Position numbers and translations under genes: made by a program
Shown: positions 2,344-4,183 of the stretch, one piece after another
How the letters are laid out: each line of letters begins with the position of its first letter
How positions within the stretch are numbered: position 1 is the stretch's first letter
The notes under the pieces: model-generated
What the model was told of the DNA's origin: nothing
Database searches by the model: none
What the model saw: only the letters and a program-made list of their open reading frames with translations
From: a virus
Lineage: Duplodnaviria; Heunggongvirae; Uroviricota; Caudoviricetes
Direction: 5' to 3' (one strand)
Length of the DNA stretch: 4,183 nucleotides
IMG/VR virus record: IMGVR_UViG_2671180378_000012

Positions 2344-2973
2344 ATGACACAGACTGAATCAGCGATTCTGGCGCATGCCCGGCGGTGTGCGCCTGCGGAG
2401 TCGTGCGGCTTCGTGATAAGCACGCCGGAGGGGGAACGGTATATCCCTTGTGTGAATATCTCTGCAGAGCCGGAGGCGTATTTTCGTATCGCACCGGAAG
2501 ACTGGCTGCGGGCAGAGATGCAGGGGGAGATTGTGGCACTGGTCCACAGTCATCCCGGTGGACTGCCCTGGCTGAGCGAGGCTGACCGGCGGCTGCAGAT
2601 AAAAAGCGCACTGCCCTGGTGGCTGGTCTGCCGGGGTGACATTCATAAATTCCGCTGTGTGCCACATNNNNNNNNNNNNNNNNNNNNNNNNNNNNNNNNN
2701 NNNNNNNNNNNNNNNNNNNNNNNNNNNNNNNNNNNNNNNNNNNNNNNNNNNNNNNNNNNNNNNNNNNNNNNNNNNNNNNNNNNNNNNNNNNNNNNNNNNN
2801 NNTGCGGCAACGGTGAACTGCTTCACCATATACCTGAACAACTGAGTAAACGGGAGAGGTATTCTGAAAAATGGCAACGACGAACGCATTCTGTCTGGCG
2901 TCACCGCCACTGGTCCGCATCTGCCTTCACGGGGATTTACAACGATTTGGCCGCCGCCTCAGCCTGTATGTGA
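2344..2973 (+). CDS. K: Tail tip assembly protein K (MPN/JAMM metallopeptidase-like N-terminal domain, NlpC/P60-like C-terminal region); interrupted by N-masked block
   Basis: ATG at 2344 is 10 nt after the L stop and begins MTQTESAILAHARRCAPAESCGF... A JAMM motif H-S-H-x7-S-x2-D is readable at 2545-2586 (HSHPGGLPWLSEAD). The C-terminal tail ...GELLHHIPEQLSKRERY...AFTGIYNDL is lambda gpK-like. Stop TGA at 2971-2973. 135 nt of N (2668-2802) hide the middle of the protein. The ORF-track version (2083..2973) is an upstream in-frame extension that overlaps L and is not believed to be translated. Confidence 0.82.
   Translation: MTQTESAILAHARRCAPAESCGFVISTPEGERYIPCVNISAEPEAYFRIAPEDWLRAEMQGEIVALVHSHPGGLPWLSEADRRLQIKSALPWWLVCRGDIHKFRCVPHXXXXXXXXXXXXXXXXXXXXXXXXXXXXXXXXXXXXXXXXXXXXXCGNGELLHHIPEQLSKRERYSEKWQRRTHSVWRHRHWSASAFTGIYNDLAAASACM
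2668..2802. other. Run of 135 N (masked or assembly gap) inside gene K
   Basis: Literal n characters in the sequence. Length is a multiple of 3 and the K frame is kept across it, but the true underlying length and content are unknown. Confidence 0.99.
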
Positions 2974-3353
2974 ACACGGCAGCGGAGGCCATCCGTGCCC
3001 TGTCGCTGCAGGTGCCGGGATTCCGCCGTCAGATGAACGAAGGCNNNNNNNNNNNNNNNNNNNNNNNNNNNNNNNNNNNNNNNNNNNNNNNNNNNNNNNN
3101 NNNTGCCAGCATGATACTGGGTGGTGTGGCTCAGATGCTGGCCCCGAAGGCTAAAGTACCGGAGTACAAAAGCACGGATAACGGCAGACAGAACACGTAC
3201 TTTTCCTCGCTGGATAACATGATTGCACAGGGGAACCCGATGCCGGTGCCTTACGGTGAAATGCTGGTTGGCTCACGGCGAATCTCCCAGGACATCAGTA
3301 CCCGTGATGAAGGCGGTGACGGGAAGGTGGTGGTTATCGGGCGGCAGGCATAA
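2871..3353 (+). CDS. I: Tail tip assembly protein I (ubiquitin-like N-terminal domain family); interrupted by N-masked block
   Basis: ATG at 2871 begins MATTNAFCLASPPLVRICLHGDLQRFGRR... and the C-terminus is ...GGVAQMLAPKA...QNTYFSSLDNMIAQGN...GEMLVGSRRISQ..., both clearly lambda gpI-like. Stop TAA at 3351-3353. It starts 103 nt before the K stop in a different frame, the same overlap I recall for lambda K/I. 59 nt of N (3045-3103) hide the central region. Confidence 0.85.
   Translation: MATTNAFCLASPPLVRICLHGDLQRFGRRLSLYVNTAAEAIRALSLQVPGFRRQMNEGXXXXXXXXXXXXXXXXXXXXASMILGGVAQMLAPKAKVPEYKSTDNGRQNTYFSSLDNMIAQGNPMPVPYGEMLVGSRRISQDISTRDEGGDGKVVVIGRQA
3045..3103. other. Run of 59 N (masked or assembly gap) inside gene I
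   Basis: Literal n characters. The flanking frame is continuous only if the gap length is taken at face value, so the true length is uncertain. Confidence 0.99.
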
Positions 3354-3390
3354 AAGCGAAAAAATCCCGCAGTGACCGAAGGCTGCGGGA
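3352..3390 (-). terminator. Putative intrinsic-terminator-like hairpin oriented on the minus strand, abutting the I stop codon
   Basis: Perfect 8-bp stem, TCCCGCAG (3365-3372) pairing with CTGCGGGA (3383-3390), with a 10-nt loop. On the minus strand it is followed by TTTTTTCGCTTTT (complement of 3352-3364). On the plus strand it is followed by an A-rich stretch, not a U-tract. Confidence 0.35.
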
Positions 3391-3497
3391 ACAGAAAATG
3401 AAGATTAACCACAGGGAGTTTTGTTTTTATTGGCCCGAAAAAACTGTAACGCCCGGGAATGATATCTGCCACGGGGGCGTACAGAAAATGTGAAGAT
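3391..3497. repeat. Short direct repeat, ACAGAAAATG followed by AAGAT, two copies 90 bp apart in the I-J spacer
   Basis: Exact 10-mer ACAGAAAATG at 3391-3400 and 3481-3490. Copy 1 continues AAGAT, copy 2 continues TG then AAGAT. Both copies sit just 3' of a G-rich hairpin-like segment and are followed within about 25-33 nt by TTTTTATT. Confidence 0.4.
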
Positions 3498-3523
3498 ATT
3501 CAGAATTTTTATTCAGTCATGAT

Positions 3524-3557
3524 ACAGGCATCCTCCGGGATGCCTGTTGTTTTTGTG
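3524..3557 (+). terminator. Putative Rho-independent terminator-like hairpin on the plus strand, about 30 nt upstream of the J start
   Basis: 10-bp stem, ACAGGCATCC (3524-3533) pairing with GGATGCCTGT (3538-3547), with a tetraloop TCCG, followed directly by the T-rich tract TGTTTTTGTG (3548-3557). Confidence 0.45.
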
Positions 3558-3588: not shown

Positions 3589-4183
3589 ATGGGCAAAGGT
3601 GGCGGCAAGGCGCACACGCCGGTTGAGGCAAAGGACAATCTTAAGTCCACGCAGATGATGAGCGTGATTGATGCGATTGGTGAAGGGCCGATTGAAGGTC
3701 CGGTGAAGGGGCTGCAGAGTATTCTGGTGAACAAAACCCCGCTGACGGACACGGACGGTAATCCTGTGATACATGGTGTGACAGCGGTCTGGCGCGCCGG
3801 GGAGCAGGAGCAGACACCACCGGAAGGCTTTGAGTCCTCCGGGGCGGAAACCGCACTGGGCGTGGAAGTGACGAAGGCAAAGCCGGTGACGCGCACCATT
3901 ACGTCCGCGAACATTGACCGCCTGCGGGTCACCTTCGGGGTGCAGTCACTGGTGCAGACCACCTCAAAGGGCGACCGTAATCCCTCTTCTGTCCGACTGC
4001 TGATTCAGTTGCAGCGTAACGGTAACTGGGTGACGGAAAAGGATGTCACCATTAACGGCAAGACCACCTCACAGTTCCTGGCCTCGGTGATTCTGGGTAA
4101 TCTGCCTCCCCGTCCTTTTAACATCCGGATGGTCCGGGAGACAGCGGACAGCACCCCGGACCAGCTGCAGAATAAGACGCTCT
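3589..4183 (+). CDS. J: Host specificity protein / central tail fibre J, N-terminal portion; 3'-partial, continues beyond the window
   Basis: ATG at 3589 begins MGKGGGKAHTPVEAKDNLKSTQMMSVIDAIGEGPIEGPV..., strongly resembling the lambda gpJ N-terminus, including ...EQEQTPPEGFESSG...TRTITSANIDRLR...GDRNPS...NLPPRPFNIRM...DQLQNKTL. I translated the frame by hand and found no stop to the window end at 4183. It is missing from the ORF track only because no stop lies inside the window. Confidence 0.92.
   Translation, partial: MGKGGGKAHTPVEAKDNLKSTQMMSVIDAIGEGPIEGPVKGLQSILVNKTPLTDTDGNPVIHGVTAVWRAGEQEQTPPEGFESSGAETALGVEVTKAKPVTRTITSANIDRLRVTFGVQSLVQTTSKGDRNPSSVRLLIQLQRNGNWVTEKDVTINGKTTSQFLASVILGNLPPRPFNIRMVRETADSTPDQLQNKTL

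Follow-up and report, generated by a model that had tools for sequence, protein, structure and literature searches.

The junction between tail genes I and J of a lambda-like prophage raises the question of why a GC-rich hairpin stands directly beside the stop codon of I with its uridine tract on the strand opposite to the tail genes. We addressed this question in a 4183-bp stretch of DNA (hereafter the window). It belongs to a lambda-like prophage of pathogenic E. coli, of which it represents the tail module: the end of the tape-measure gene H (11-1309) is followed by M, L, K and I (2871-3353), and J begins at 3589, after a spacer of 235 bp. The segment from 3300 to 3640 matches E. coli E2865 and 88_1577 with 100% identity, and the nearest matches of the window in phage collections (up to 98%) are Stx1a- and Stx2a-converting phages. 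In the unmasked identical locus of E2865, I is annotated as 'tail assembly protein' and J as gpJ. No RNA gene is annotated at the I-J spacer in the RefSeq records, and an Rfam cmscan search of the whole window with E up to 1 gave nothing relevant, its sole match being a chance snoRNA at 3651-3708. The junction comprises the following parts:

2871-3353, plus strand: tail assembly gene I, from the list of open reading frames, partly N-masked, with its stop TAA at 3351-3353
3352-3364, minus strand: terminator U-tract and likely Hfq-binding 3' tail (predicted), reading UUUUUU CGC UUUU in the sequence
3365-3390, minus strand: predicted sRNA terminator stem-loop, with 5' arm UCCCGCAG (3390-3383), loop CCUUCGGUCA (3382-3373) and 3' arm CUGCGGGA (3372-3365)
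3524-3557, plus strand: terminator-like hairpin just upstream of J, with a 10-bp stem (3524-3533 / 3538-3547), loop TCCG and then TGTTTTTGTG
3589-4183, plus strand: start of the tail tip / host specificity gene J (translation MGKGGGKAHTP...; gpJ in E2865), which runs past the end of the window

The original prediction described an 8-bp perfect stem at 3365-3390 with a U-tract on the minus strand, and both an inverted-repeat check and shuffled sequences confirmed it. The two arms, TCCCGCAG (3365-3372) and CTGCGGGA (3383-3390), are 100% complementary over 8 bp and enclose a 10-nt loop, and the minus strand downstream of the stem reads TTTTTTCGCTTTT. The 3' arm is followed there by UUUUUU (3364-3359), CGC (3358-3356), UUUU (3355-3352) and A, and the second of these T runs overlaps the TAA stop of I. 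A strict terminator pattern, requiring a perfectly paired stem of 8 bp or more, a loop of 3-12 nt and 5 or more T among the 8 nt that follow, was applied to both strands and identified exactly two structures in the 4183-bp window, namely this hairpin and the plus-strand hairpin at 3524-3557, which had likewise been predicted and is present with its 10-bp stem and TGTTTTTGTG tail. In 500 dinucleotide-preserving shuffles the same pattern occurred on average 0.01 times, at least once in 5 of the 500 and twice in none. A consensus terminator scan accepts only loops of 3-8 nt and missed the 3365-3390 hairpin because its loop is 10 nt, giving instead an overlapping minor stem at 3370-3356. In the folded minus-strand RNA the hairpin is found in both the minimum-free-energy and the centroid structure, the latter with an energy of -14 kcal/mol. 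The site thus has the two components of an intrinsic terminator, a GC-rich hairpin and an immediately following U-rich tract on the transcribed strand.

Comparison with homologous loci indicates that this hairpin and U-tract are very probably the Rho-independent terminator of a leftward, Hfq-dependent sRNA, an allele of the PasB/EcOnc22-24 family whose expression in this prophage we infer from homology. The element itself is already known, having been described as EcOnc22-24 (2014) and as PasB (2021), and the hairpin is its terminator. PasB was described in EPEC O127:H6 E2348/69 (Pearl Mizrahi et al. 2021, PMC8550237, Table S6) as an 83-nt RNA on the minus strand of NC_011601.1 (1466343-1466261), in prophage PP6 between E2348C_1436 and E2348C_1437. 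RefSeq annotates these plus-strand flanking genes as tail assembly protein I, with its stop at 1466255, and gpJ, beginning at 1466496, which places the 3' end of PasB 6 nt from the I stop, at the same hairpin as that of the window. The spacers of E2348/69 and the window show 87% mean column identity, with the PasB terminator aligning onto the 3365-3390 hairpin, and the first bases of the published PasB northern probe, AATCCCGCAGTGATCGCGGAGCT (PMC8550237), correspond to the window plus-strand bases AATCCCGCAGTGA.

The published data for PasB provide direct evidence of an expressed and Hfq-dependent transcript (PMC8550237). In an hfq mutant its log2 fold changes are -6.8 and -2.4 (padj 2e-40 and 4e-6), and its baseMean of 482-1082 compares with 5-15 for the nearly silent flanking I and J. 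In RIL-seq, PasB has 37 partners and is RNA2 (the 3' partner) in 99-100% of its chimeras; the same tables contain no entries naming the I or J locus tags and assign no other interacting RNA to the spacer.

The second set of homologues comes from EHEC O157:H7 Sakai, in which EcOnc22, EcOnc23 and EcOnc24 were assigned to prophages Sp15, Sp14 and Sp11, respectively (Tree et al. 2014, PMC4104026, Table S2). These were detected as Hfq-CRAC peaks and as a northern band of ~85 nt that is destabilised without hfq (PMC4104026), and their targets were given as unknown in a later review of the subject (Sy and Tree 2021, PMC7873438). Their northern probe matches the I-J spacers of Sp11, Sp14 and Sp15 on the tail-sense strand, with zero mismatches once an OCR gap was corrected, and lies directly beside the same hairpin. 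The coordinates in Table S2 refer to an older Sakai record, and a shift of roughly +140 bp is evident from AgvB1 and from the EcOnc42 probe. A placement of the EcOnc22 peak near J, over the plus-strand terminator, was considered and rejected, as correction for this shift puts the CRAC peak on the PasB-like body. Just as the consensus scan missed the hairpin of the window, no predicted Rho-independent terminator was given for EcOnc22-24 by Tree et al. (PMC4104026). PasB of EPEC and EcOnc22-24 of EHEC are thus one family in the same I-J slot, a link that is absent from both Pearl Mizrahi et al. 2021 and Zhu et al. 2026. The prediction that the hairpin terminates leftward transcription and closes a small transcribed unit is supported by these loci, through the 3' end of PasB and the position of the EcOnc22/23/24 probe.

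Alignment with these homologues divides the minus strand of the spacer into the following parts:

~3452 to ~3357, minus strand: predicted PasB/EcOnc22-family sRNA gene, A-type allele, roughly 95 nt, based on the covariance model, identity to PasB and synteny
3398-3408, minus strand: candidate seed UUAAUCUUCAU, with the core AAUCUUC at 3406-3400, single-stranded and just upstream of the terminator
3415-3420, minus strand: AACUCC motif, complementary to a Shine-Dalgarno sequence and a possible second pairing site, conserved in alignments and of putative function
3459-3464, minus strand: predicted -10 hexamer TATCAT of the sRNA promoter, aligned with the -10 of other alleles and without a good -35
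3489-3504, no strand assigned: candidate CRP-like box TGTGA-agatat-TCAGA, upstream of the predicted sRNA promoter

To evaluate this assignment independently of the window itself, we used a covariance model that was built from 15 members of other alleles (E2348/69, Sakai and IMG/VR loci) and included zero window-type sequences. This model matched the minus strand of the window at full length (3450-3353) with 66.5 bits and an E-value of 1.4e-12, and the plus strand with only 8 bits. Both this match and the identity to validated members place the element of the window in the PasB/EcOnc22-24 family. Its position is equally consistent: in the window, in E2348/69 and in Sakai Sp11, Sp14 and Sp15 the element lies in the I-J spacer, antisense to the tail genes, with its 3' end at the I stop.

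The I-J junctions of related phages, a comparison that the original prediction had proposed, provide a broader view of this conservation. We gathered 95 loci via the I protein and extracted 82 I-J spacers (42 unique), which fall into length classes of 60 bp (as in lambda), 235-260 bp (that of the window), 336-342 bp and 851-852 bp. The model found 89 matches in the related loci, all antisense to I and abutting the I stop, and the hairpin is present in all 89; no match was found in lambda or in the E. ruysiae, Enterobacter, Pseudocitrobacter, Rahnella and Pantoea relatives. The seven core pairs CCCGCAG/CTGCGGG are unchanged in the 27 distinct sequences from these 89 loci, so a covariation test on the terminator stem had no countable changes among its 7 pairs. 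Since the stem never varies, the structural support rests on the invariance of its arms against a variable loop, which occurs in 8 versions of 10-16 nt. Across the 27 distinct sequences the stem arms have an entropy of 0.00, as compared with 0.77 for the 5' part, 0.85 for the loop and 0.95 for the linker. The ATCTTC just upstream of the stem is likewise invariant, and all alleles retain a U run of 6-7.

At least four alleles can be distinguished: A, that of the window; B, PasB proper, which is also found in Sakai Sp12; C, which is mostly linked to sodC; and D, comprising EcOnc22-24. Among 5426 complete E. coli genomes, sensitive blastn searches located the family in at least 1151, at up to 9 places per genome, and a sequence with at least 95% identity to the 118-nt stretch of the window is the best match in ~465 of the same 5426. 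Carriers of the A allele include E. coli E2865 (NZ_AP018808.1, I-J spacer at 1210756-1210990) and O157:H7 PV15-279. In Sakai the family is found in seven prophages. The A-type allele was not found in Sp4, 9, 10, 11, 12, 14 or 15 (Sp3, 6, 8 and 17 lay outside this search), and the published Sakai CRAC and northern data do not cover the A allele because no A-type copy was found in the seven prophages that were checked.

Evidence for the start of the sRNA comes from the alignment of promoter elements. The TATCAT of the window occupies the same alignment columns as TATAAT in E2348/69 and AATAAT in the Sakai and L028 alleles, and the position of this -10 hexamer, in any of the three forms, is kept in alleles without sodC. 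The E2348/69 promoter, TTCACA-16-TATAAT, is near consensus with a score of 11/12; no recognisable -35 was found in either the window allele or the expressed Sakai allele. A consensus promoter scan of the window gave no full sigma-70 match, a null result that is uninformative because the expressed Sakai EcOnc22 allele gives none in the same scan either. The predicted start at ~3452 lies 7 nt past the -10, and the window position aligned with the published PasB 5' end is ~3438, which would correspond to an RNA of roughly 81 nt. The 5' end of the family is uncertain, as the published start of PasB lies 15 nt downstream of the promoter prediction for E2348/69. The CRP-like box at 3489-3504 is offered as a lead only. 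It is the single match in the window against 0.09 expected, and its half-sites are invariant among alleles while the 6-nt spacer differs. Its centre lies ~44.5 nt upstream of the predicted start, the canonical positions being -41.5 and -61.5.

Taken with the homologues, these elements suggest how the locus would operate. RNA polymerase would start ~7 nt after TATCAT (3464-3459), near 3452, and proceed leftward until it is released at the hairpin and U run at ~3359-3356, a few nucleotides short of gene I and at the 3' end that has been demonstrated in homologues. The product, of roughly 80-95 nt, would run antisense to the tail operon; in this RNA a single-stranded U-rich stretch containing AAUCUUC precedes a GC-rich stem-loop and a U-tail. 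In enterobacterial sRNAs the Hfq-binding module consists of a U-rich stretch, a terminator hairpin and a U-tail (Ishikawa et al. 2012, cited in PMC4104026), and, as in other Hfq-dependent sRNAs, the terminator hairpin and its U-tail may here double as an Hfq-binding 3' module. In a lysogen, in which the tail genes are silent, the sRNA would be made alone, stabilised by Hfq, and pair in trans with host and prophage mRNAs. Pairing would presumably involve AAUCUUC, and perhaps AACUCC. The AAUCUUC at 3406-3400 is unpaired in the centroid fold, and the seed proposed for PasB lies at the same position (Zhu et al. 2026, bioRxiv 10.64898/2026.05.13.724894). A discrete Hfq-bound RNA of ~83-85 nt has been demonstrated for the PasB and EcOnc22 homologues and would be expected of the window allele by analogy; for this allele we infer the use of the promoter, the binding of Hfq and the presence of targets.

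An additional function in cis can be considered, as the late tail mRNA contains, at the I-J junction, a stretch of ~90 nt to which the sRNA is perfectly complementary. By pairing there it could direct RNase III cleavage or block J; in that case the four or more divergent alleles (A-D), of which one genome can have up to 9 copies, could serve as specificity types through which prophages interfere with one another or tail-tip dosage is controlled. If this were true, pairing would occur upon induction of the prophage itself or of a co-resident prophage with the same allele. We regard such a cis action alongside the trans role as improbable.

Similarly improbable is that the hairpin is a real leftward terminator that survives as the fossil of a larger minus-strand cassette, the sodC moron, with no active promoter or functional sRNA at this site. 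The same hairpin does lie downstream of a minus-strand sodC in 26 of the 82 spacers and in Sakai Sp4 and Sp10, and the window allele, without a -35, has zero promoter-scan matches; the expressed EcOnc22, however, is equally devoid of a scan-detectable promoter. The window also retains the aligned -10, AAUCUUC and the CRP-like box, features that are common to the expressed PasB and EcOnc22 but absent from the sodC version, and the frequency of sequences at least 95% identical to it (best match in ~465 of 5426 genomes) fits maintenance over decay.

It is very unlikely that the stem-loop acts in the plus-strand late mRNA, as a 3' stabiliser or processing site after I, in place of terminating minus-strand transcription. 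The polycistronic transcript must hold the same palindrome and can fold it, and the hairpin abuts the I stop; yet the T run is found on the minus-strand side only, the plus strand continuing as ACAGAAAATG, and the covariance model scores just 8 bits on that strand. The minus-strand transcript of the homologues ends at the hairpin, and lambda and other relatives do without it. A role of the stem-loop in the late mRNA could coexist with one as sRNA terminator.

A reading of the conserved block as a plus-strand gene for a 31-aa protein (3398-3493), to which the hairpin would be incidental, is extremely improbable. An ATG-initiated ORF is present and its first codons (MKI) are conserved, but these codons are the invariant AAUCUUC of the sRNA read on the opposite strand, 38 of the 82 spacers have ACG or ACA in place of the start codon, and the ORF ranges from 16 to 54 aa in a frame that differs among alleles. 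This ORF was rejected as a gene because its start, length and frame are not conserved. Chance palindromy in GC-rich DNA, which the original prediction had named as the alternative, has next to no probability, being contradicted by the shuffles (0.01 per window) and by a stem that is invariant in 27 distinct sequences in which loop and flanks vary.

The terminator of a PasB/EcOnc22-family sRNA thus being the preferred explanation of the hairpin at 3365-3390, its relation to the plus-strand hairpin at 3524-3557 can be evaluated from the shorter junctions. In lambda the I-J spacer (J02459 15445-15504) is 60 bp and consists essentially of a plus-strand hairpin, AAACCGCC-tgcg-GGCGGTTT, then TGTCATTT, and the E. 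ruysiae prophage has a 60-bp spacer with the plus-strand hairpin alone, as in lambda. The hairpins of lambda and the window are both on the plus strand, GC-rich, provided with a T-rich tail and immediately upstream of J, but their sequences are unrelated, and the lambda spacer has nothing on the minus strand. In the plus-strand hairpin, substitutions on one side of the stem are matched on the other among alleles (ATCC/GGAT versus ACCC/GGGT, U-G pairs being the intermediates), and no evidence was found for a plus-strand small RNA in the I-J spacer. From this comparison of sequences the plus-strand terminator at 3524-3557 is the ancestral hairpin of the I-J junction, lying outside the sRNA unit.

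The sRNA element is an inserted unit, since the 60-bp I-J spacers of lambda and E. ruysiae lack it; ~175 bp carrying the minus-strand sRNA unit have been inserted between the I stop and the plus-strand terminator. The moron of Juhala et al. 2000 is reportedly a self-contained unit of promoter, gene and terminator that has been inserted between two genes which are neighbours in related phages. The minus-strand sRNA unit is a moron in this sense: lambda and E. ruysiae lack it at this junction, and it has its own terminator, its promoter being the predicted part. These results modify the view that outward-facing terminators bracket a single unit. The minus-strand unit does end in its own terminator, while the plus-strand hairpin, which stands alone in lambda and E. 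ruysiae, belongs to the older junction. Insulation of the tail genes from antisense read-in, the other function that had been suggested, holds as a consequence of the terminator and not as its main role. The terminator would shield the tail genes from antisense transcription by sRNA transcripts in the window and by sodC transcripts in the 851-bp version.

These findings also bear on the reported distribution of the family. A recent survey of Pas sRNAs by blastn with a word size of 28 described PasB as the least diverse and as mostly single-copy (Zhu, Shabalina and Storz 2026, bioRxiv 10.64898/2026.05.13.724894). The longest exact match to PasB is 17 nt in the window allele and 15 nt in EcOnc22, and alleles A, C and D escape a search at that word size. 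The low diversity and mostly single-copy state reported for PasB probably reflect this search setting, and the PasB/EcOnc22 family is broader and more often multi-copy than the survey reports. The hairpin marks a prophage sRNA family that has been validated experimentally in its homologues and is omitted by genome annotation, and Rfam holds no family for PasB or EcOnc22-24.

Among known systems, PasB is the closest to the window allele. The two share the lambdoid I-J slot, the antisense orientation, a 3' end abutting the I stop, an identical terminator core (CCCGCAG/CUGCGGG), a U-tail and the AAUCUUC upstream of the terminator, and they are 80% identical over 75 aligned columns. They differ in the loop (CCUUCGGUCA in the window, CUCCGCGAUCA in PasB), in the 5' half and the sequence flanking the seed, and in the promoter, which is TATCAT without a -35 in the window and TTCACA-16-TATAAT in PasB. 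Their U runs differ as well: the window allele has 6 followed by the CGC interruption, whereas PasB, for which 7 is also the published value (PMC8550237), and EcOnc22 have 7. EcOnc22-24 share the slot, strand and terminator core with the window allele; EcOnc22 is an Hfq-dependent RNA of ~85 nt to which the window allele is 69% identical over 132 columns, with differences in the loop and the 5' part.

The sodC-F1/F2 moron, found in lambdoid prophages of O157:H7 (D'Orazio et al. 2008, PMC2569942), represents a second use of this site. Like the sRNA unit of the window, it sits in the I-J slot on the minus strand, and downstream of it come a PasB-like element and a terminator hairpin identical to that of the window; slot and terminator are common to a PasB-like sRNA and to the sodC-F virulence moron. 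Its cargo is a gene for a Cu/Zn superoxide dismutase of 175 aa, with a promoter and a first hairpin of its own, whereas the window has no sodC; the sodC version, in turn, is without the PasB -10, the CRP-like box and the plus-strand I-J hairpin. The anti-sRNAs AgvB and AsxR of EHEC (Rfam RF02702 and RF02703) were considered as identities for the element of the window and rejected, as they are sited near PR' and the RF02702 and RF02703 models have no match. They resemble the sRNA of the window in being short, prophage-encoded, Hfq-binding sRNAs with intrinsic terminators that are carried as morons, but they occupy another slot, downstream of the late promoter PR' and near the lysis genes, and are unrelated to it in sequence.

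PasB and EcOnc22, EcOnc23 and EcOnc24 are alleles of a single small RNA and occupy the same slot between tail genes I and J. The EcOnc RNAs are listed in Table S2 of PMC4104026, and their link with PasB is mentioned in neither of the Pas papers (PMC8550237, Table S6; bioRxiv 10.64898/2026.05.13.724894). The latter, a 2026 survey, used blastn with a word size of 28, and because the longest exact matches to PasB are only 15-17 nt for the allele found in the window (A), the mostly sodC-linked allele (C) and that of EcOnc22/23/24 (D), these three forms were undetectable in that search. The Sakai genome (NC_002695.2) carries the family seven times, in four forms distributed among its prophages (Sp), with B denoting PasB proper.

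PasB-family copies in E. coli Sakai
Sp12, 2217392-2217732: B-type, essentially PasB
Sp11, Sp14 and Sp15: D-type, three copies
Sp4 and Sp10: C-type, sodC-linked, two copies
Sp9, 1794585-1794771: one degenerate copy

The Sp9 prophage has lost genes K and I, and the loop of the hairpin in its family copy has collapsed. Among the Sakai family copies, Hfq peaks are reported for the D-type alone (PMC4104026).

RefSeq (PGAP) places an RNA gene at none of the PasB-family loci listed among the E. coli genome matches (H79-H109), for which the feature column reads 'none' or gives just the adjoining tail assembly gene. Rfam has no family for the PasB-type RNA, and the RefSeq omission is consistent with this absence. 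Within the window, genes K and I are partly masked by N, in two stretches.

Masked segments
2668-2802: N run
3045-3103: N run

The identical E2865 locus provides the unmasked sequence of both genes, and the hairpin finding is unaffected by the masked bases. Four genome contigs match the prophage tail region or its I protein under labels other than E. coli (L004, L005, L008 and L012). The tail region of the E. coli prophage occurs, with 93-100% protein identity, on short contigs whose labels read Streptomyces flavalbus, Parendozoicomonas haliclonae and Clostridiales MAG, while the I protein match on a 44.6-kb contig labelled Geobacteraceae MAG (L008) has 44% identity to the query over the same span, like the Enterobacter loci. 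Contamination or mis-binning is the most likely explanation for each of the four contigs.

Approximately one third of related prophages contain an 851-bp form of the I-J spacer (L025:2083-2933 and 25 further IMG/VR loci), which is also present twice in Sakai.

851-bp sodC spacers in NC_002695.2
1202487-1203337: Sp4
1963484-1964334: Sp10

This form encodes the Cu/Zn superoxide dismutase gene sodC-F on the minus strand (Pfam Sod_Cu, E 3.9e-32), with a hairpin of its own, followed by a PasB-like element and then a terminator identical to that of the PasB family. The 851-bp spacers lack the PasB -10 element, the CRP-like box and the + strand I-J hairpin. The sodC 3' region may be the source of the PasB-like RNA in these spacers; alternatively, an older small RNA may already have been present, with sodC inserted upstream of it.

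In some alleles, the stretch that separates the + strand hairpin from the ribosome-binding site of J contains two to four copies of a heptamer, with copy number varying directly upstream of this host-specificity gene; the repeat is absent from the window.

Heptamer repeat
L016, L040 and L082 (related loci), last 60 nt before J: CAGACAT

In E2348/69, PasB is approximately twice as abundant in the non-activating as in the activating condition (PMC8550237). A CRP-like box lies upstream of the predicted promoter of the small RNA.

CRP-like box
3489-3504: TGTGA-agatat-TCAGA

It is the sole match within the window, where 0.09 would be expected, and across alleles its half-sites are invariant and its 6-nt spacer variable. 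The centre of the box precedes the predicted start by ~44.5 nt, a non-canonical position for CRP. The non-activating and activating media of the E2348/69 study were reportedly LB and glucose-containing DMEM. If so, catabolite control of PasB, for which this is no proof by itself, would fit the difference in abundance.
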